This document shows positions 14,104 to 49,776 of a DNA stretch of 64,000 bases, one piece after another; within the stretch, counting starts at the first letter, position 1, and each line of letters starts with the position of its first letter. Location: the NCBI GenBank assembly GCA_965206075.1, contig CBDBIS010000005.1:3455813-3519812 (forward strand), read 5' to 3'. The stretch is from Alphaproteobacteria bacterium. Its GTDB lineage: Bacteria > Pseudomonadota > Alphaproteobacteria > Bin95. Both the position numbers and the translations under genes were made by a program. The notes below the pieces were generated by a model that saw nothing but the letters and a program-made list of their open reading frames with translations, ran no database searches and had not been told where the DNA came from.

Positions 14104-14126
14104 CGAAAGCAAGAGGACTGTCACCC

Positions 14127-15329
<1,203 letters not shown>

Positions 15330-15414
15330 CCGCCGGGTTTTCCCGCCTGCCCTCGCGGAAGCGGGGCGCCCCGCTCCCCATGACGGAGAGGAGGGAAGCG
15401 CGCGCCCCGGAAGA

Positions 15415-15544
15415 CCCTCTCCCTCTGGGAGAGGGCAGGGTGAGGGGCCGCTTTCGCGCCAGCGGAAGCGGCGGGCGCAGCCCGGCAACCGCCCGTCACG
15501 CCGAGAGAGCCCCCACCCGGCCTCCCCCGCAAGCGGGGGAGGAG
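15415..15544. repeat. REP/BIME-like paired palindromes (family A)
   Basis: CCCTCTCCCTCTGGGAGAGGG...CCTCCCCCGCAAGCGGGGGAGG with a conserved spacer shared with 20572-20703 and 44934-45064. Confidence 0.85.
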
Positions 15545-15664
15545 AAGAAAGGAGCAAGCGCGGGAGAGGCAAAAGAGCAAGGCCGGCTGACGCACCGCAC
15601 ACAGGCCGAAATGAGATGTGTGCATCCGGTAGGCCCGCGGGGAGAGGCCCGCCGCATTTTCCGT

Positions 15665-15697
15665 TTGACTTTATCCCCATATATTCTATATATGTTC
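15665..15697 (+). promoter_or_regulatory. Sigma70-like promoter overlapping a possible alphaproteobacterial LexA box
   Basis: TTGACT at 15665 and CTATAT at 15686; ATTC-N7-GTTC at 15683-15697 (one mismatch to GTTC-N7-GTTC). Confidence 0.5.
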
Positions 15698-15883
15698 CAT
15701 CGCAAAGCGAAAGGCGACCGAGGGGATGACCTGACGAAACGCGCCGCATTGCGGCCATGCGAAGGGATGTGGGGAGCTGAACGCGCCGGGGGCGGCAGAC
15801 AGGGGAGGTGCGCGCGCCGCGATCGCCGCGATGCGGCGATTGGCAGGTCGGGTTGAAACGGCGGGGAGGGTAAGGAGCAAGGC

Positions 15884-16318
15884 GTGGCGGAAGGGCCGGA
15901 AGACGCGCTCGCGGTGTCCGGGCGGGGCCGGGCGGTCGGCATGGAGTTGCGGCGCCGGGCGGTGGCGGCGGTGGTGCAGGGCGGCATGAGCACGCGGGCG
16001 GCGGCGGCGCGGTTCGGGCTGAGCGCGCCGAGCGTCAGCCGCTGGGTGAACCGCTTTCGCGAGCGCGGGCATGTGGAGCCGGACCCGCGCGGCGGCGGAC
16101 GCCGCTCGCAGGTGGAGGTGGAGCGCGAGCGGATCGTCCGCATCCTGGAGGCATGCCCGGAAATGTCCAGCCGGGCGCTGGGCGAGGCGCTGGCCGCAGA
16201 AGGCGTGCGGTTCTCCGACCGGACCCTGCGCGGGTTCCTCAAGCGCCACCGCATGGAGCGCCCCCGCCGCCTCGCCGTCCGCCGCCAGCGGAAGCGCTGG
16301 AAGGCAAGCGGCGGTTAG
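15884..16318 (+). mobile_element. IS630-family transposase N-terminal HTH ORF with no DDE domain
   Basis: ELRRRAVAAV..MSTRAAAARFGLSAPSVSRWVNRFRERG..P....GG..L...L...GVRFS..TL..FLKRH; no catalytic ORF follows. Confidence 0.75.
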
Positions 16319-16700
16319 GGGCCGGGACCGTCCGGGACTCCTTGCATATAGACGGCCTCATAGCGGCGGCGGCCCATGACTCACGGAGAATGCCTCCCCC
16401 GCTTGTAGTCCCGGACGCCGTGCCAACGACGATCGGGGGACGGTTCCGGCTTTCCCGGCCGGCATAGGCGGTCCTATCTCGTCTAAAACGGCTGCAACAG
16501 GTGCAAAGGGCCGGGGATGGACCCAAGATCGGGTCCGGGTATAACGGAGGGAATGCGGGCGCGGGGGCTTTGGCGGATAAGCAGGAAACACAGGACATCG
16601 CCGGATCTTCAAAAGCGGCTCCCCTGGCGTTCCGGGGCGGCGCTCTATCCGCAGGAAGCGGCATGTGGCAACATTGCGGTTGCTGGCGGGGAGTAGGGGC

Positions 16701-17759
16701 ATGACCGGTGAAGGCGGTGAGCGCCTGTACTGGATGCGCTTCGAGGTTGGGAAAGACGGAGCCCACACGGTCCCGGCGCCGGTGCTTGTGGATTCCGTAG
16801 CCAGCATCCAGCGGGTCGTGTATCTGCTGGCGAAGTTCGCGCGGAGGGAGGAGCTGGGTCGACGTGCGTCCTTCTCTCGCGCGCTGCGGGAGGCGTTCGC
16901 GCTCCAGTGCCGGGTTCCCGAGCCGGGCAGCTACGCGATGCCGTTCGAGATCGGCAGGGCGGCGCACTCTCCGCCGGTGGGAGGGGAAGCTGACGAGGTG
17001 CGTCGGCTGTTCCGGCGGGTGACAACGGCGGTGGGTAAGGGCAACGTCGATGCCGTCCGGGCGTTGGTGCCGGACCCGCACTATCTGGATTGTCTGGGGG
17101 ACGCGTACCGGAAGGCGGCGCCGCCGCCGCGCAGCGGCGTCTCGTTCTGGCTGGAGGACCATCGACGGCGGACGATTCTCGATAGCCGCAAGATGGAGGC
17201 GGCGTTCGGTAATCTCAAGGGGCGCATCGAGCGGAAACAGTGGGTGCGCGAAGATACGATCTCCGGGATGCTCGTAGGTATGGACTTCGATGAACGCCGC
17301 ATCAGGTTGACACGTCCGGACGGAAAGTCCGTCAGCGCGTACTACGACGAGGAGTCGGAACTTCCGTTGATCGAGCATCGCAGGGGATGGGTCGGACTGA
17401 CTGGCGACGTGCTGTACGATGAGCACGGACAAGCCCTTTCGGTGACGCACGCCCGCAATTTCGTATGCTTCGACGAGGACACAATCGAACTTAGCAACGT
17501 GCATTTCTATAACGTCGCGTATCGCGCATCTCCCCCGCTGCGGTTCAACATCAGTTATGACCCGCACGATGAGCTGTACGACCTTGACGGGGAGTTCGGT
17601 ATCTCTGTGTCGGCGGCCTCGCGATTCGACTTGCACGACGAGTTGCGTGAGGCGTTGTCCATGCTGTGGATCGAGTACGGCGAGGAGTCGCCGGAAAAGC
17701 TCTCGCCAAAGGCGCAGCGTCTGCGCAGTGACCTCCGGAAGCGGTTGACGGCAGTTTAG
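16701..17759 (+). CDS. Hypothetical multidomain protein with a C-terminal HicB-like domain
   Basis: 352 aa, GGAG-like RBS; C-terminus GEFGISVSAASRFDLHDELREALSMLWIEY..ESPEKLSPKAQRL resembles the HicB fold; abuts the toxin-like gene. Confidence 0.7.
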   Translation: MTGEGGERLYWMRFEVGKDGAHTVPAPVLVDSVASIQRVVYLLAKFARREELGRRASFSRALREAFALQCRVPEPGSYAMPFEIGRAAHSPPVGGEADEVRRLFRRVTTAVGKGNVDAVRALVPDPHYLDCLGDAYRKAAPPPRSGVSFWLEDHRRRTILDSRKMEAAFGNLKGRIERKQWVREDTISGMLVGMDFDERRIRLTRPDGKSVSAYYDEESELPLIEHRRGWVGLTGDVLYDEHGQALSVTHARNFVCFDEDTIELSNVHFYNVAYRASPPLRFNISYDPHDELYDLDGEFGISVSAASRFDLHDELREALSMLWIEYGEESPEKLSPKAQRLRSDLRKRLTAV

Positions 17760-18050
17760 GTGGCGGCAACCTATAAACGGGCCGCAGTAGAGAGCGCACT
17801 TAAGGCCAAGGGGTTCCGTCGGCGCGAGAGCCACCACAGTTATTTCGTTTACTACACTGAAGGAGGCATGAAGACGCCAGTCTGGACGAAGACGTCGCAC
17901 GGAAAGGGTGGCGCCGATATTTCGAACAAGCTGCGCAGTCGTATGGCGAAGCAGTGCAAGCTTCGCACGGCGGAATTCCGTGACTTGGTCGACTGCTCCC
18001 TGTCGCAAGCCGAGTACGAGGCATTGCTGACCGGGAAGGGCGAAATCTGA
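17760..18050 (+). CDS. HicA-like (dsRBD-fold) toxin
   Basis: 96 aa, basic; LKAKGF...SHHSYF...TKTSHG...DIS..L..RMAKQCKL pattern; starts immediately after the upstream stop. Confidence 0.75.
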   Translation: MAATYKRAAVESALKAKGFRRRESHHSYFVYYTEGGMKTPVWTKTSHGKGGADISNKLRSRMAKQCKLRTAEFRDLVDCSLSQAEYEALLTGKGEI

Positions 18051-18430
18051 CGTATCGAGAAGTTTCCTGACTGCCCAGGATGCCATCCTTGGAGCGCAAT
18101 TCCGCGGCACCGTCTTGCGACCGGAAGCCCGCACGCTGCCTGCGTCGCCCCGGACAGCGCGCCAGCGTCGTGTCGAGGTCTTCGGACGAAGGCCCGCCCC
18201 TGTTGCTTGAGGCTCCGGCTCGGGGGCCCGGGGGGACGTAAAGGGGCGTCGCGCCTGCATCCTGGGTTTACGCTCGGGTATGACGGAGGAGCCTGTCCTG
18301 AGGCCTGTCTGGGGCGGTGTTCGGACATGGCGGGCGCCCGCTGCCGGCGTTTACCGGCCGGGCGCCCTTCGACGATACTCCATCCGGGGCGGGCGGGCCC
18401 CGCCGTGCCGCCACCGCCGCAAGGGGAGCC

Positions 18431-19756
18431 ATGACCGCAACCCGCCAGCTCCGGTTAGGGGCGTTCATGCGCCCGGTGAGCATCCATACGGCATGGTGGC
18501 GCTATACGGGCAGTATGCCGGACGCCAACTTCAATCTCGGCTGCCTGGCCGCGTTCGCCCGGACGCTGGAACGGGGATGCTTCGATGCGTTCTTCATGGC
18601 GGACCACCTTGCGGTGCTCAACATGCCGATGGATGCGCTCAAGCGCAGCGCCACCGTCACCTCGTTCGATCCGCTCACACTCCTGCCCGCGCTGGCGATG
18701 GTCACCGACCGGCTCGGCCTCATCGCGACCGCATCGACCACCTTCGAGCCGCCCTATACGGTCGCCCGGCGGTTCGCTTCGCTCGACCACATCAGCAACG
18801 GGCGCGCAGGCTGGAACCTCGTCACGACCTCGAACCCCGACGCCGCGCTCAACTTCGGCCAGACCGAACAGATGACGCATGGCGAGCGTTACCGCCGGGC
18901 GCGCGAATATTTCGATGTGGTGACCGGCCTGTGGGACAGCTGGGCCGACGACGCCTTCACGCGCGACGTCGGGACGGGGCAATTCTTCGATCCCGACCGG
19001 CTCCATATCCTGGACCACCGCGGCGAGTTCTTCTCCGTGCGCGGACCGCTGAACATCGCCCGCCCGGTGCAGGGCTGGCCGCTCATCGTGCAGGCCGGCG
19101 CATCGGAGGCCGGCCGGCAGCTTGCAGCCGAAACCGCGGAGATGGTGTTTACCGGGCAAGGCACGCTGGCCGAGGGTCAGCGCTTCTACGCCGATGTGAA
19201 GGGCCGGATGGAGCGCATCGGGCGCGATCCCGACCGTATGAAGATCCTGCCGGGGGTCCTGGTCGTCATCGGGGACAGTGTCGAGGAAGCGCGCGAAAAG
19301 CGGGCGCATCTCGACAGCCTGGTCAACGACGACAGCGCGATCGCGAGCCTGTCCATTGCGCTCGGGCACGACGCTTCGACCTTCGACCCCGACGGACCGT
19401 TGCCCGAGGTGCCCGAGAGCAATGCGAGCAAGAGCGGCCGGGAACGTGCCATCGCGCTTGCCCGGCGCGAAGGGCTGACCGTGCGCGAGCTCGCGCGCCG
19501 TCTCGGGGGCTATTCGGGGCTCGCCATGGTCGGCACGCCGGCCACCATTGCCGACGAGATGCAGCACTGGCTGGAGGCCCGCGGCAGCGACGGCTTCAAT
19601 GTCATGTTTCCCTACCTGCCCGGCGGCCTGGACGCCTTCGTCGACCGGGTCGTGCCCGAATTGCAGCGCCGGGGACTCTATCGGCGGGCGTATGAGGGGG
19701 CCACGCTGCGCGAGAACCTCGGCCTGCCGCGCCCGCCTAACCGGTTCTTCCGGTAG
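18431..19756 (+). CDS. LLM-class flavin-dependent monooxygenase (NtaA/DszA/SnaA family)
   Basis: FDAFFMADH, ARRFASLDHISNGRAGWNLVT, QAGASEAG, VPELQRRG..R..Y.G.TLRENLGL motifs. Confidence 0.93.
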   Translation: MTATRQLRLGAFMRPVSIHTAWWRYTGSMPDANFNLGCLAAFARTLERGCFDAFFMADHLAVLNMPMDALKRSATVTSFDPLTLLPALAMVTDRLGLIATASTTFEPPYTVARRFASLDHISNGRAGWNLVTTSNPDAALNFGQTEQMTHGERYRRAREYFDVVTGLWDSWADDAFTRDVGTGQFFDPDRLHILDHRGEFFSVRGPLNIARPVQGWPLIVQAGASEAGRQLAAETAEMVFTGQGTLAEGQRFYADVKGRMERIGRDPDRMKILPGVLVVIGDSVEEAREKRAHLDSLVNDDSAIASLSIALGHDASTFDPDGPLPEVPESNASKSGRERAIALARREGLTVRELARRLGGYSGLAMVGTPATIADEMQHWLEARGSDGFNVMFPYLPGGLDAFVDRVVPELQRRGLYRRAYEGATLRENLGLPRPPNRFFR

Positions 19757-20523: not shown

Positions 20524-20750
20524 TCCCAACGCGCGCTGAGGCGGACTCATGTTCGGAGGCAGCCTGTTTCGCTCCCCTCCCGCTTGCGGGAGGGGTTGGG
20601 GGAGGGCCTCTCGGCGTGACGGGCCTTTGCGGGGCTTCGCCCGCCGCTTCCGCTGGCGCGCAAGCGGCCCCCCACCCGGCCTCCCCCGCAAGCGGGGGAG
20701 GAGTTTCCCGGCGGCTGTCGGCATAGGTTCCGTTCAACGACCGCTGGTAC
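20521..20750. repeat. Family A palindrome pair (20572-20703) inside a ~225-bp MITE-like unit
   Basis: Reverse-complement homolog of 44887-45112, including the flanks. Confidence 0.8.
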
Positions 20751-47338: not shown

Positions 47339-48343
47339 CTACGGCACGACCACGATCTTGCCGAAGACCTCGCGGTCTTCCAGCATCCGCACGCCCTCGG
47401 CGGCGTCCTCCAGCGGCAGTTCGACGTCGATGGGAGGGTCGAGGCGCCCGGCGGCGATATCCGCCATCATCTCCTTCAGGCCTTCCACGGTCCAGCTGTT
47501 GGAGCCGAGGATCCGGAGCTCGAAGGTCCAGATGTAGCGGATGTCCGTCTTGGGGTCGAAACCGGCGGTCGCCCCGCAGGTCAGCATCCGGCCGCCGCGC
47601 TTCAGCGCCTTCATCGAGGGCACCCAGGTGTCGCCGCCGGTGAAGTTGACCACCACATCGACGCCGCCCTCGTAGGACCGCCGGGTCGGCTTGCCGTAGC
47701 GGCGCCAGATCTCGCGCTCGAACTCGGTCTCGATGTAGTTCAGCCCTTCGTCCGCGCCGAGCGCCAGCAGACGGTCGATCTTCTGCTGGCTGCTGGCCGC
47801 GGCGATGACATGCGCGCCGACGGCCTTGGCGAGCAGCACGCAGGCATTGCCGACGCCGCCGGAGGCGCCGAGGATCAGCACCGTCTCGCCCGCCTTCACA
47901 TGCCCGTTCTCGAACATCATGCGATGCGCCGTGCCGTAGGCGACCGGTAGCGACGCCGCCTGCGCGAAGCTCACTCCGTCCGGCATCGCGATGAGCTGAC
48001 TGGCGGCGCAAAGCGCTTTTTCCGCAAGACCGCCGTCCAGCATCTCGCCCATCAGGCCCCGGTCCGGCCAGATCGGGTCCAGCAGCACGCGGTCGCCGGG
48101 AGACCAGCCTTCCACGCCCTCGCCGAGCGTCTCGATCTCGCCGGCAAGGTCGAGGCCGGGAACGACGGGAATCGGCACCTTGATGCCCGGCATGCCGCGC
48201 CGGGTGAAGACATCGTGATAGTTGAGCGAGCAGGCCCCGACCCGGATGACCGCCTCGCCCGGCCCCGGTTCCGGCTCCGGCCAGTCGCTGCGGAAGCGGA
48301 GCTTGTCCTGCCCGCCATGGCCTTCGAGAACGAGTGCGCGCAT
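47339..48343 (-). CDS. MDR-family (zinc-binding/quinone) oxidoreductase
   Basis: SLNYHD, PGLDLAG, GASGGVG, CGATAG, FGKIVV motifs. Confidence 0.92.
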   Translation of the reverse strand: MRALVLEGHGGQDKLRFRSDWPEPEPGPGEAVIRVGACSLNYHDVFTRRGMPGIKVPIPVVPGLDLAGEIETLGEGVEGWSPGDRVLLDPIWPDRGLMGEMLDGGLAEKALCAASQLIAMPDGVSFAQAASLPVAYGTAHRMMFENGHVKAGETVLILGASGGVGNACVLLAKAVGAHVIAAASSQQKIDRLLALGADEGLNYIETEFEREIWRRYGKPTRRSYEGGVDVVVNFTGGDTWVPSMKALKRGGRMLTCGATAGFDPKTDIRYIWTFELRILGSNSWTVEGLKEMMADIAAGRLDPPIDVELPLEDAAEGVRMLEDREVFGKIVVVP

Positions 48344-48357
48344 GCGGCCCCTCCTTC

Positions 48358-49776
48358 CTATTCGGCGGCGGCGCCAACGCCGCTATTCGTAACGTTCGCC
48401 GCGTTCGGCGCGGCGGCGGCGCCAACGCCGCTATTCGTAACGCTCGCCGCGTTCGGCGCGGCGGTGGCGCCAACGCCGCTATTCGTAACGTTCGCCGCGT
48501 TCGGCGCGGCGGCGGCGCCAACGCCGCTATTCGTAACGTTCGCCGCGTTCGGCGCGGCGGCGGCTTCCTTGGCCGCCATCTTCGCCTTCAGCTGCTCGGG
48601 CGTGAGCCGCACGATGTCCTCGTTCTGGTGGGCATAGCGCCGGGCGCCCTCGACCGAGAGGTCCTCCAGCTCGATTTCGCCGGCGAGCACGCCCGCCTTC
48701 CAGGCCGCGTGCTCCTCCTCCATCGCGTGGAACTCGGGCATCACCTCGCGGGAGAAGAGCTCCAGCGAGGCGCAGATGTCTTCATGGGTATTCTGCCCGG
48801 CCTGGTTCAGCAGGATCACCTGGTCCACATTCGAGGCGGCGAAGGCGCGGAGCTTCTTCCGGATGGTGTCGGGGGACCCGATCAGCCCGGCGGTCAGCGC
48901 CTGCTGCGCCTTCTCCGTGTGGCGCCAGTCCTGGTAGAGCTTCCAGAGGTCGATCTCGCCGGGCGCGGAAATGCCGTGACGGCCGTAATGGCTGAGACAG
49001 AAGATGAAGAAGGTCCATCCGGCGGCCTTCTCGATCGCCTCCTCGTCCGTCTCGCAGCACATGAAGCCCGAGACCATGGCGATGTTCGGATTGGTCGGGT
49101 AGTCGCAGATCCGGTCGAGATGGCGGGTGAGGTTCGTGTAGTAGCGGTTGACCCAGGCCTTCGCCGCCTCCGGCGAGACGAACTGGAAGCCGAGCGCGCC
49201 CATGCCCCAGCGCCCGGCGTCCTCGATGGTCTCGATATTGGAGCAGGCGACCCAGAGCGGCGGATGCGGCTTCTGCAGCGGCTTCGGCACGACATTGCGC
49301 TTCGGGTAGCTGTAGAACTCGCCGCTGAACTCGAAGGCGGTCTCGGTGAAGAGCGGGATCGTCGCCCTGACGCCCTCGATCCAGCGGTCGCGCTTGGAAC
49401 GCACCTGCACGCCGAAGGGATGCAACTCCACCGGCCCCTGCGCCTCGCCGAGCCCGAGCTCCACCCGCCCGCCGGACAACAGGTCGAGCGTCGAGACCTT
49501 CTCCGCAACGCGGACCGGATGGTTGGTGGTGAGCTGGATGACGCCGTGGCCGAGGCGGATGTTGCGGGTGCGCTGGCTGGCCGCGCCGAGGAAGACCTCC
49601 GGCGCCGAGGAGTGCGAATACTCCTCCAGGAAGTGGTGCTCGACCTCCCAGGCGTAGTCGTAGCCGAGCGCATCGGCGAGCTCGATCTGGGCCAGCGACT
49701 CGTTGAGGAGGCGCTGCTCGCTGTCCTCGGCCCAGGGGCGCGGCAGCTGATGTTCGTAAAAGATGCCGAATTTCAT
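48358..49776 (-). CDS. LLM-class monooxygenase with a C-terminal repeat tail
   Basis: MKFGIFYEHQLPRPW, WEVEHHFLEEYSHSSAPE motifs. Confidence 0.92.
   Translation of the reverse strand: MKFGIFYEHQLPRPWAEDSEQRLLNESLAQIELADALGYDYAWEVEHHFLEEYSHSSAPEVFLGAASQRTRNIRLGHGVIQLTTNHPVRVAEKVSTLDLLSGGRVELGLGEAQGPVELHPFGVQVRSKRDRWIEGVRATIPLFTETAFEFSGEFYSYPKRNVVPKPLQKPHPPLWVACSNIETIEDAGRWGMGALGFQFVSPEAAKAWVNRYYTNLTRHLDRICDYPTNPNIAMVSGFMCCETDEEAIEKAAGWTFFIFCLSHYGRHGISAPGEIDLWKLYQDWRHTEKAQQALTAGLIGSPDTIRKKLRAFAASNVDQVILLNQAGQNTHEDICASLELFSREVMPEFHAMEEEHAAWKAGVLAGEIELEDLSVEGARRYAHQNEDIVRLTPEQLKAKMAAKEAAAAPNAANVTNSGVGAAAAPNAANVTNSGVGATAAPNAASVTNSGVGAAAAPNAANVTNSGVGAAAE
48364..48564. repeat. 48-bp tandem repeat x4 (coding VNTR, AAAAPNAANVTNSGVG)
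   Basis: GCCAACGCCGCTATTCGTAAC recurs at 48373, 48421, 48469 and 48517. Confidence 0.95.

Follow-up and report, generated by a model that had tools for sequence, protein, structure and literature searches.

A probable Class 8 hicBA toxin-antitoxin module with a DUF7946-DUF7947-like antitoxin region in an alphaproteobacterial genome

INTRODUCTION

The Class 8 hicBA modules were defined computationally by Gerdes (mBio 2024, PMC10865869), with hicB located upstream of hicA and closely linked to it. According to the part of that paper that describes Class 8, HicB is encoded by 331-356 codons and consists of three domains: residues 1-171 show no similarity to known domains, residues 175-253 are lysyl-tRNA synthetase-like, and residues 255-342 adopt the HicB fold. 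The cognate HicA is ∼95 amino acids (aa) long and has a double-stranded RNA-binding domain (dsRBD) fold followed by two small C-terminal helices, and both proteins lack a DNA-binding domain (PMC10865869). No bench follow-up of Class 8 hicBA was found in a full-text literature search that included 2024 onward. Here we describe a pair of abutting genes at 16701-18050 of a 64 000-nt stretch of an alphaproteobacterial genome (GenBank assembly GCA_965206075.1, contig CBDBIS010000005.1), which is referred to below as the window and to which all coordinates without a further label refer. An original prediction, made from the sequence alone, had proposed the pair as an undescribed defence system made of a long HicB-tailed protein and a HicA-like toxin. 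The analysis reported here indicates that it is probably a bicistronic Class 8 hicBA type II toxin-antitoxin module.

RESULTS

Gene pair and its likeness to Class 8 hicBA

The pair and its leader are as follows.

16636-16700, + strand: leader of 65 nt, kept along with both genes in relatives; a GGAG at 16691-16694 precedes the ATG of the large gene
16701-17759, + strand: large gene, 352 aa from ATG (product P0001); probable Class 8 hicB-like antitoxin gene, from the open reading frame (ORF) call and from its architecture compared with the Class 8 part of Gerdes 2024 (PMC10865869)
17760-18050, + strand: small gene, 96 aa from a GTG start (product P0002); probable Class 8 hicA-like toxin gene

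Both predicted ORFs were present. The TAG stop of the large gene occupies 17757-17759 and the GTG of the small gene starts at 17760, leaving no gap. The peptide motifs quoted in the original prediction (HTVPAPVL..IQ, GSYAMP, TISGMLVGMDFDERRIRL, VGLTGDVLYD, SHH and SHG) were all found. An in-frame GTG lies upstream of the ATG, at 16665; position 16701 was taken as the start of the large gene because distant homologues begin at the position aligned with the ATG. Neither a sigma-70 promoter-like site nor a terminator was seen in a consensus scan.

When the pair was set against the description of Class 8 in PMC10865869, it agreed with it in gene order (hicB then hicA, joined as TAG|GTG) and in the length of HicB. 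The domain boundaries were also close to the published ones. The N-terminal domain covers residues 1-176 here; the middle one covers residues 178-260, with lysyl-tRNA synthetases among its Foldseek matches; and the C-terminal one covers residues 262-352, with a beta-beta-beta-alpha order in the model. The small protein, with 96 aa, has its extra helices at 70-78 and 83-92, and both proteins are without a DNA-binding domain here as well. Nothing in that description sets the two apart; the N-terminal domain, however, is reported there as unrelated to known domains and is here linked to DUF7946. Since Class 8 as described there has the same order, lengths, domains (with nearly identical boundaries) and extra helices, the claim that the system was undescribed does not hold.

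Both genes are under purifying selection: compared with an 81%-identical copy in a Rhodospirillales metagenome-assembled genome (MAG; locus L010), the ratio of non-synonymous to synonymous substitution rates (dN/dS, Nei-Gojobori) was 0.30 and 0.21 for the large and the small gene, respectively. A relative that is ∼95% similar was covered over ∼16635-18060 by contigs of two metatranscriptome libraries from one study, one of which spans the gene junction; such contigs come from RNA libraries that can contain DNA and are no proof of transcription.

The small protein resembles HicA toxins

The AlphaFold model of P0002 (predicted local distance difference test score, pLDDT, 86; predicted template modelling score, pTM, 0.77) exhibited a helix at residues 7-16, strands at 19-23, 27-32 and 38-44, and a helix at 56-65, after which the two extra helices follow. 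Comparison with 48 161 solved chains gave 1whz_A as the top match (Z 8.6, root-mean-square deviation 2.0, 68 aligned residues). The title of this entry reads 'hypothetical protein', and we take it to be a HicA homologue. It was followed by HicA3 (4p78_D, Z 5.6) and the HicA proteins of Burkholderia pseudomallei (6g26_E, Z 5.6), Streptococcus pneumoniae (5yrz_D, Z 5.2) and Escherichia coli (6hpb_C, Z 3.7). The sole unrelated chain among the top six was 2hjj (Z 3.8), and all others scored 3.5 or lower. Foldseek also placed 1whz first (E 0.061, probability 0.98). By hhalign, the P0002 family was aligned with eight canonical HicA proteins of the same genome at a probability of 93.1% (E 3.2e-7), and the Pfam model HicA_toxin (PF07927) matched 19 of 28 P0002 homologues at E ≤ 1, the best with 4.7e-5. 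A weak match of P0002 to a 'toxin' family of PHROGs (E 0.011) was also observed. Sequence searches of solved structures, with single proteins and with profiles of both P0001 and P0002, returned chance-level matches only.

HicA toxins have a conserved catalytic histidine on strand 2. In P0002, H26 was invariant, both in 28 of 28 and in 19 of 19 aligned sequences. The two histidine motifs that the original prediction had singled out, SHH and SHG, are both present; H47 of SHG is variable. These results support the HicA likeness that had been proposed for the small ORF, and P0002 is, as modelled, a HicA-family protein of dsRBD fold with two extra C-terminal helices.

Elsewhere in the same genome, nine hicA matches above the Pfam threshold were observed. 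Eight of the genome's own hicA loci were inspected (L002-L009), and all of them adjoin hicB-like genes. Matches to HicB-like models are plentiful in the whole genus.

The large protein has three domains

The model of P0001 (pLDDT 81, pTM 0.50) falls into three parts.

16701-17228, + strand: residues 1-176, N-terminal alpha/beta domain, DUF7946-like (hhalign against DUF7946-DUF7947 proteins)
17232-17480, + strand: residues 178-260, oligonucleotide/oligosaccharide-binding (OB) fold, DUF7947-like (Foldseek, VIA-align)
17484-17756, + strand: residues 262-352, predicted HicB-fold-like toxin-binding domain (secondary structure of the model, hhalign, complex model)

Foldseek of the whole P0001 model against the PDB gave nothing at E ≤ 0.001, and the list of matches was full of OB folds. 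The best of these was RPA14/32 (E 4.4e-3), and lysyl-tRNA synthetases followed with E from 1.3e-2 to 4e-2 and a probability of about 1.0. VIA-align gave Z 8.6-7.2 to MCM-N, SSB, RPA, AsnRS and AspRS, all spanning residues 178-260, which bears out the OB-fold-like middle that had been read from the sequence. Residues 1-176 were not resolved by the fold search of the model, and their best match in the ESM Atlas scored 0.85 (unnamed clusters; DUF6575 0.81), below the meaningful level.

The C-terminal domain showed the order beta-beta-beta-alpha plus a terminal helix in the model. When 124 C-terminal sequences were aligned by hhalign with 35 HicB N-domains from the genus, a probability of 64% was obtained (E 6.4e-5, 38 columns), and strand 2, strand 3 and helix 1 of the domain were paired with HicB. 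In the ESM Atlas, residues 262-352 reached at best 0.78; an antitoxin PHD_like cluster scored 0.77 and one of DUF1902 scored 0.75, all below the meaningful level. Together with the complex model described below, the secondary structure and the hhalign result suggest that the last ∼90 aa act as a HicB-like, toxin-binding domain, as had been proposed. The accompanying statement that the large protein has no obvious DNA-binding domain was likewise borne out, as none was detected by Pfam in either P0001 or P0002.

Short stand-alone C-terminal domains were also sought. All 23 matches of ≤192 aa were close relatives at 59-91% identity. They look like pieces of split genes, and an independent minimal antitoxin version of the domain was rejected as a candidate.

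Predicted complex of the two proteins

P0001 residues 262-352 and P0002, each with its own alignment, were used as input for a complex model. The interaction prediction score from aligned errors (ipSAE) was 0.72, 0.74 and 0.71 in three runs, compared with 0.00 for the best of three controls; the mark applied to this score is reached by 58 of 80 solved complexes and by 2 of 110 mismatched pairs. The runs shared at least 92% of their contacts, with a pLDDT of at least 81 for the partners. The modelled interface involves residues 287-341 of P0001, among them the conserved LSPKA stretch, and residues 22-65 of P0002 (the sheet with H25 and H26, and helix 2) together with residues 94-96. The model supports binding of the C-terminal domain to the toxin sheet. 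Since HicAB complexes have already been solved, the passing score may partly reflect likeness to them or memory of them.

The N-terminal two-thirds are related to stand-alone DUF7946-DUF7947 proteins

Pfam DUF7946 matched the N-terminus of 3 of 26 distant family members (E ≤ 0.01), one of them with 30.2 bits, above the cut-off of 27. A deep alignment of the large-protein family was then compared by hhalign with a set of seven stand-alone proteins, one of which (L086) had no Pfam match as a protein at E ≤ 1e-4. The probability was 97.0% (E 8.6e-11, 244 columns), and P0001 residues 5-259 were aligned with residues 13-299 of a 302-aa DUF7946+DUF7947 protein. On the strength of this alignment, the antitoxin can be described as a DUF7946-DUF7947 module followed by a HicB-fold tail. 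The homology of residues 5-259 to stand-alone DUF7946-DUF7947 proteins, which is judged from sequence profiles, is new relative to the published Class 8 description.

The 302-aa protein is encoded by the same genome outside the window (G000:C5:3111694-3112257; L080 1213-2121, – strand), and the gene directly upstream of it carries the C-terminal domain of Type ISP restriction enzymes. Neighbours are mixed among the seven stand-alone DUF7946 loci: a Type ISP gene in one and phage-type genes in two. At L081 (1141-2834), two adjacent same-strand ORFs of ∼295 aa were observed, one with DUF7946+DUF7947 and the other without a Pfam match, which may be a tandem divergent pair.

Family size, pairing and degraded copies

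Among close relatives, 86 cluster representatives of the large protein and 94 of the small protein were found, and none of the former was functionally named. A profile search of 1.84 billion representatives (50% identity clusters) recovered 1977 large-family members at E ≤ 1e-3, 947 at E ≤ 1e-10 and 326 at E ≤ 1e-30; the best 150 representatives are nearly all ∼350 aa. Host genomes of the pair include Rhodospirillales, Pseudomonadales and Arenicellales MAGs, Tritonibacter, Rhodovulum, and MAGs of Thermodesulfobacteriota, Akkermansia and Dehalococcoidia.

The small gene lies directly downstream of the large one in 11 of 14 loci from named genomes. At the remaining three, the large gene is frameshifted with a small-gene remnant present (L014), the large gene is interrupted and the small gene absent (L018), or only a C-terminal fragment is left (L022). 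Of 12 further loci, one on a viral contig and 11 on contigs from metagenomes, 11 have the small gene downstream, and the twelfth stops at the contig end. Counting the remnant, a small gene follows the large gene in 23 of 26 loci, in line with the conserved pairing expected from the original prediction. Degraded copies are common (L014, L018, L022, and a congener copy, L079, described below), and 14 of the 86 close large-protein clusters are shorter than 300 aa; some of the short clusters and fragments may be truncations at contig ends. As a suggestive example of a C-terminal domain kept beside the small gene, P0064 and P0326, which are split clusters, share with the small protein P0092 a longest contig of 25042.

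Genomic setting and acquisition

The surroundings of the pair contain the following features.

14121-15329: thiolase gene, upstream neighbour
15884-16318, + strand: IS630-type helix-turn-helix (HTH) transposase fragment between the thiolase gene and the pair (HTH_32, HTH_23, HTH_Tnp_Tc3_2); IS, insertion sequence
16326-18335, no strand assigned: block containing the pair, low in G+C over part of its length; the closest congener, G408, has 29 nt in its place (from a BLAST comparison of the window with L088)
16516-16547, + strand: degenerate half of a repetitive extragenic palindromic (REP) sequence, resembling the REP family of the window
18208-18238, + strand: degenerate REP half, resembling the same family, in the same orientation as the copy at 16516
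18317-19756: luciferase-like monooxygenase (LLM) gene, downstream neighbour

The pair has recently entered this genome. The block at 16326-18335 consists of the pair with ∼310 nt of left flank and ∼280 nt of right flank. G408, whose flanks are 95-96% identical, has the IS-like piece without the pair block. A DNA search covered the genus's 16 other species; in seven congeneric genomes, the matches to the thiolase and LLM genes lay 42-68 nt apart. The predicted insertion between the thiolase and LLM genes is thus confirmed by congeners that lack the ∼2 kb block at that junction. The G+C content is 0.57-0.60 across 17200-18100, whereas the flanking DNA has about 0.65-0.77. A profile of the large protein matched 2 of 41 related genomes, namely this one and the congener G412. 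The G412 copy (L079 1372-2145) is decayed: a 140-aa ORF encodes the C-terminal domain only and is followed by a frameshifted HicA-like gene.

DNA likeness to the nearest copies elsewhere (L010, 84.6%; L067, 82.7%) is limited to 16636-18053, and that to a third copy (L068) also starts at 16636. Because the likeness is confined to this interval, the mobile unit is taken to be the two genes plus the 65-nt leader (∼1.4 kb). Only short, chance-level pairs were found when direct or inverted repeats marking mobile-element ends were sought. In some relatives the likeness extends to the left beyond 16636, where it stops with L010 and L067: a contig of run X5, from another organism, is ∼95% similar over 16498-18060 and also matches 16300-16344, and 109 other letters replace the intervening 153.

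The transposase fragment, which the original prediction did not mention, is part of a ∼680-nt element at 15643-16325. This element recurs many times in the genus, where dozens of copies match at 70-89% identity (several in the same genome), and looks like a non-autonomous IS derivative. The two REP halves that had been taken to bracket the pair are partly confirmed: both resemble the REP family (alignment A8: mean column identity 75%, 9 of 45 columns invariant), but they are degenerate, and no further copy of either was found within three mismatches. Both halves face one way, and they are therefore not a split inverted REP pair.

Other repeats were seen in the window. The REP-rich intergenic region at 15343-15642 has many 84-94% copies elsewhere in this genome and contains a hairpin family, CACCCGGCCTCCCCCGCAAGCGGGGGAGGAG, that also occurs at 20673, 45034 and 56412. 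A tandem array of a 48-nt unit lies at 48315-48602, with about five to six copies at 97-100% identity.

DISCUSSION

Assignment and proposed mechanism

The pair probably belongs to Class 8 hicBA, as it is matched by the published description. Several findings weigh against this assignment. The likeness is to a description, not to a sequence. P0002 itself scored far below the HicA_toxin gathering score (13.1 bits versus 27, E 0.11) and was not picked up by a HicA_toxin scan of its own genome at the Pfam threshold; it had no NCBIfam or PADLOC match either. The hhalign alignment sets the canonical GSH histidine opposite the variable H25, one residue before the invariant H26, and H47 of the SHG motif is replaced in 4 of 19 aligned homologues. 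P0001 matched no Pfam family, the HicB models included, and no NCBIfam or PHROGs family. An earlier, shallow hhalign run of the large family against nine full-length HicB proteins gave a probability of only 4.4%; it was superseded by the deeper, domain-cut run that gave 64%. Finally, with no DNA-binding domain in either protein, there is no visible basis for the usual type II autoregulation.

The most likely mechanism, judged from the models, is ordinary HicA/HicB neutralisation via the C-terminal domain of the antitoxin. The 96-aa product would be a ribosome-independent RNase toxin, its RNase activity being expected from its membership of the HicA family. Residues ∼262-352 of the antitoxin would sit on the face of the HicA beta-sheet and on helix 2, where the invariant histidine is located, and thereby block the toxin. 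The two genes are probably translationally coupled via TAG|GTG. The first ∼260 residues of the antitoxin would form the DUF7946-DUF7947 module, with the alpha/beta domain preceding the OB fold.

A possible sensing role of the N-terminal module

By association, the DUF7946-OB module may act as a sensor in phage defence. In its fullest form, as the original prediction read it, this would be a sensor-fused abortive-infection system, in which the module detects phage nucleic acid or protein, the HicB domain lets go or the antitoxin becomes open to proteolysis, and HicA degrades RNA and halts the infection; we hold this alternative tentatively, as one that may apply but is not expected to. Defence or mobile genes near the pair speak for it: an integrase and an AbiJ-like gene (L010), type I restriction-modification hsdM/hsdS directly upstream (L013 and L021), SocA and SLOG (L018), an M78 peptidase and a KAP NTPase (L019), and NOV_C (L023). 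On the viral contig (L066), the pair lies between a serine recombinase gene and a NOV_C gene. The neighbourhood survey cuts both ways, however, as the neighbours in the window are the thiolase gene, the IS fragment and the monooxygenase gene, with no defence island, and several other loci are flanked by housekeeping genes. At one locus (L015), another HicB-like gene is nearby. Just downstream of the Class 8 pair of this Alphaproteobacteria MAG (L015 7491-8498, – strand), a 336-aa protein was observed with an N-terminal HicB_lk_antitox domain and a long C-terminal part without assignment.

The homology of the N-terminal ∼260 residues to free-standing DUF7946-DUF7947 proteins (97%) is also consistent with a sensor, and OB folds commonly bind single-stranded nucleic acid, which would suit the recognition of a phage ligand.

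A weaker kinship to the PADLOC family PDC-M32A points the same way. The match of P0001 itself to the PDC-M32A hidden Markov model (HMM) was slight (E 0.022, 11.7 bits, residues 179-220 only); PDC-M32A HMMs matched 6 of 23 distant family members (best 3.4e-8), and hhalign gave 72% (E 3.3e-5) over residues 16-276. Set against this, PDC-M32 is only a candidate system, its partner differs (an N6_Mtase-type gene lies upstream in the loci inspected), and none of 19 small proteins of the P0002 family matched any PADLOC model. The scan of this genome (G000) for PDC-M32A returned no match. The identity of the P0001 family with PDC-M32A was considered and rejected, as the family HMM found nothing in true PDC-M32A loci at E ≤ 10.

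Predicted viral structures gave further matches to P0001, the best being a protein of Leptospira phage LE1 (E 4.1e-9 over 308 columns), a DUF6575 protein (E 1.1e-8) and a Myoviridae protein (E 6.0e-8), with low TM-scores of 0.32-0.40. PMC9519451 names DUF6575 as one of the domains present in E. coli defence systems that were obtained by experimental selection, which agrees with a sensor role. The link is at the fold level only (TM 0.37), and Pfam DUF6575 matched none of the 26 distant family members scanned.

Carried further, the DUF7946-OB part might be an autonomous, reusable sensing unit of conflict systems that releases HicA when a phage ligand is bound via the OB fold, a proposal we consider doubtful. 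The unit would then occur free-standing in prophages and beside a Type ISP enzyme, with another tail near a methylase in PDC-M32A, and perhaps as DUF6575. If the proposal were true, the locus would be a sensor-gated abortive-infection system and not a passive toxin-antitoxin pair.

Addiction module or non-toxic pair

Alternatively, the pair could have no defence role and serve mobile DNA simply for addiction or stabilisation, with the N-terminal part only tuning the stability or oligomerisation of the antitoxin. The travelling block is compact (1.4 kb) and patchy across phyla. In the genus, it was seen in 1 of 16 other species, as a decayed remnant only; an IS fragment adjoins it here and recombinases elsewhere; and degraded copies are common. 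But the 260-residue module is under purifying selection and is kept across 1977 clusters, almost all of ∼350 aa, which exceeds the need for a spacer, and the same module exists independently of HicA. We regard this explanation as unlikely, although not markedly so.

It is highly improbable that there is no toxin-antitoxin pair at all and that the two proteins form a complex whose working part is the large OB-fold protein, with the small dsRBD protein as its RNA-binding subunit without toxicity. The weak match to the HicA sequence model, the variability of one of the two histidines, the lack of an autoregulatory DNA-binding domain and the occurrence of DUF7946-DUF7947 proteins without HicA would fit, but H26 is invariant and occupies or adjoins the catalytic position, P0002 has no clear structural relatives other than HicA toxins, the modelled interface buries the toxin sheet in the manner of HicB (a comparison that draws in part on the description in PMC10865869), and the C-terminal domain tends to be retained beside the small gene where loci are degraded, although the last point is suggestive only.

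Comparison with known systems

Canonical HicAB systems (6hpb of E. coli, 6g26 of B. pseudomallei, 4p78 of Yersinia pestis HicA3B3 and 5yrz of S. pneumoniae) have in common with the pair described here the toxin fold (Z 5.6-3.7), the two-gene operon and the beta-beta-beta-alpha core of the toxin-binding part of the antitoxin. They differ from it in several respects. Here hicB precedes hicA, the reverse of the canonical order; the antitoxin has about three times the canonical length, and the HicB fold is C-terminal instead of N-terminal; no HTH or ribbon-helix-helix domain was detected; the toxin has two extra helices; and neither protein reaches the Pfam thresholds.

Class 7 hicBA, as characterised in the corresponding part of Gerdes 2024 (PMC10865869), resembles the pair in having a long HicB without a DNA-binding domain, encoded upstream of hicA and contacting the toxin through its C-terminus. 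Its HicB, however, is 216-233 aa long and has two DUF1902 domains and no OB fold, and its HicA is described there without the two extra helices.

The stand-alone DUF7946-DUF7947 proteins (PF25678, PF25679) are homologous to residues 5-259, with the N domain preceding the OB fold as in P0001. In contrast, they have no HicB-fold tail, and no HicA neighbour was present in the seven loci examined. PDC-M32A, with its weak homology to residues 16-276 of the large protein, has a different C-terminal domain and a partner that is not HicA-like. The upstream ORF at two PDC-M32A loci (L024 and L025) is an N6_Mtase-type gene of 469-495 aa, and the ORF at a third (L026) is of similar size. For PDC-M32, a candidate system, no published mechanism was found in the literature search.

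Compared with these systems, the locus is probably one more copy of a catalogued module type, not a discovery. Because the corresponding site is cleanly empty in congeners, this copy is well delimited and convenient to clone. The family is large (1977 representative clusters at 50% identity), and the N-terminal two-thirds of the antitoxin are now linked to DUF7946-DUF7947 and, more weakly, to PDC-M32A and DUF6575. This link would turn an 'unknown domain' into a testable question, namely whether the DUF7946-OB region is a sensor module common to defence systems.

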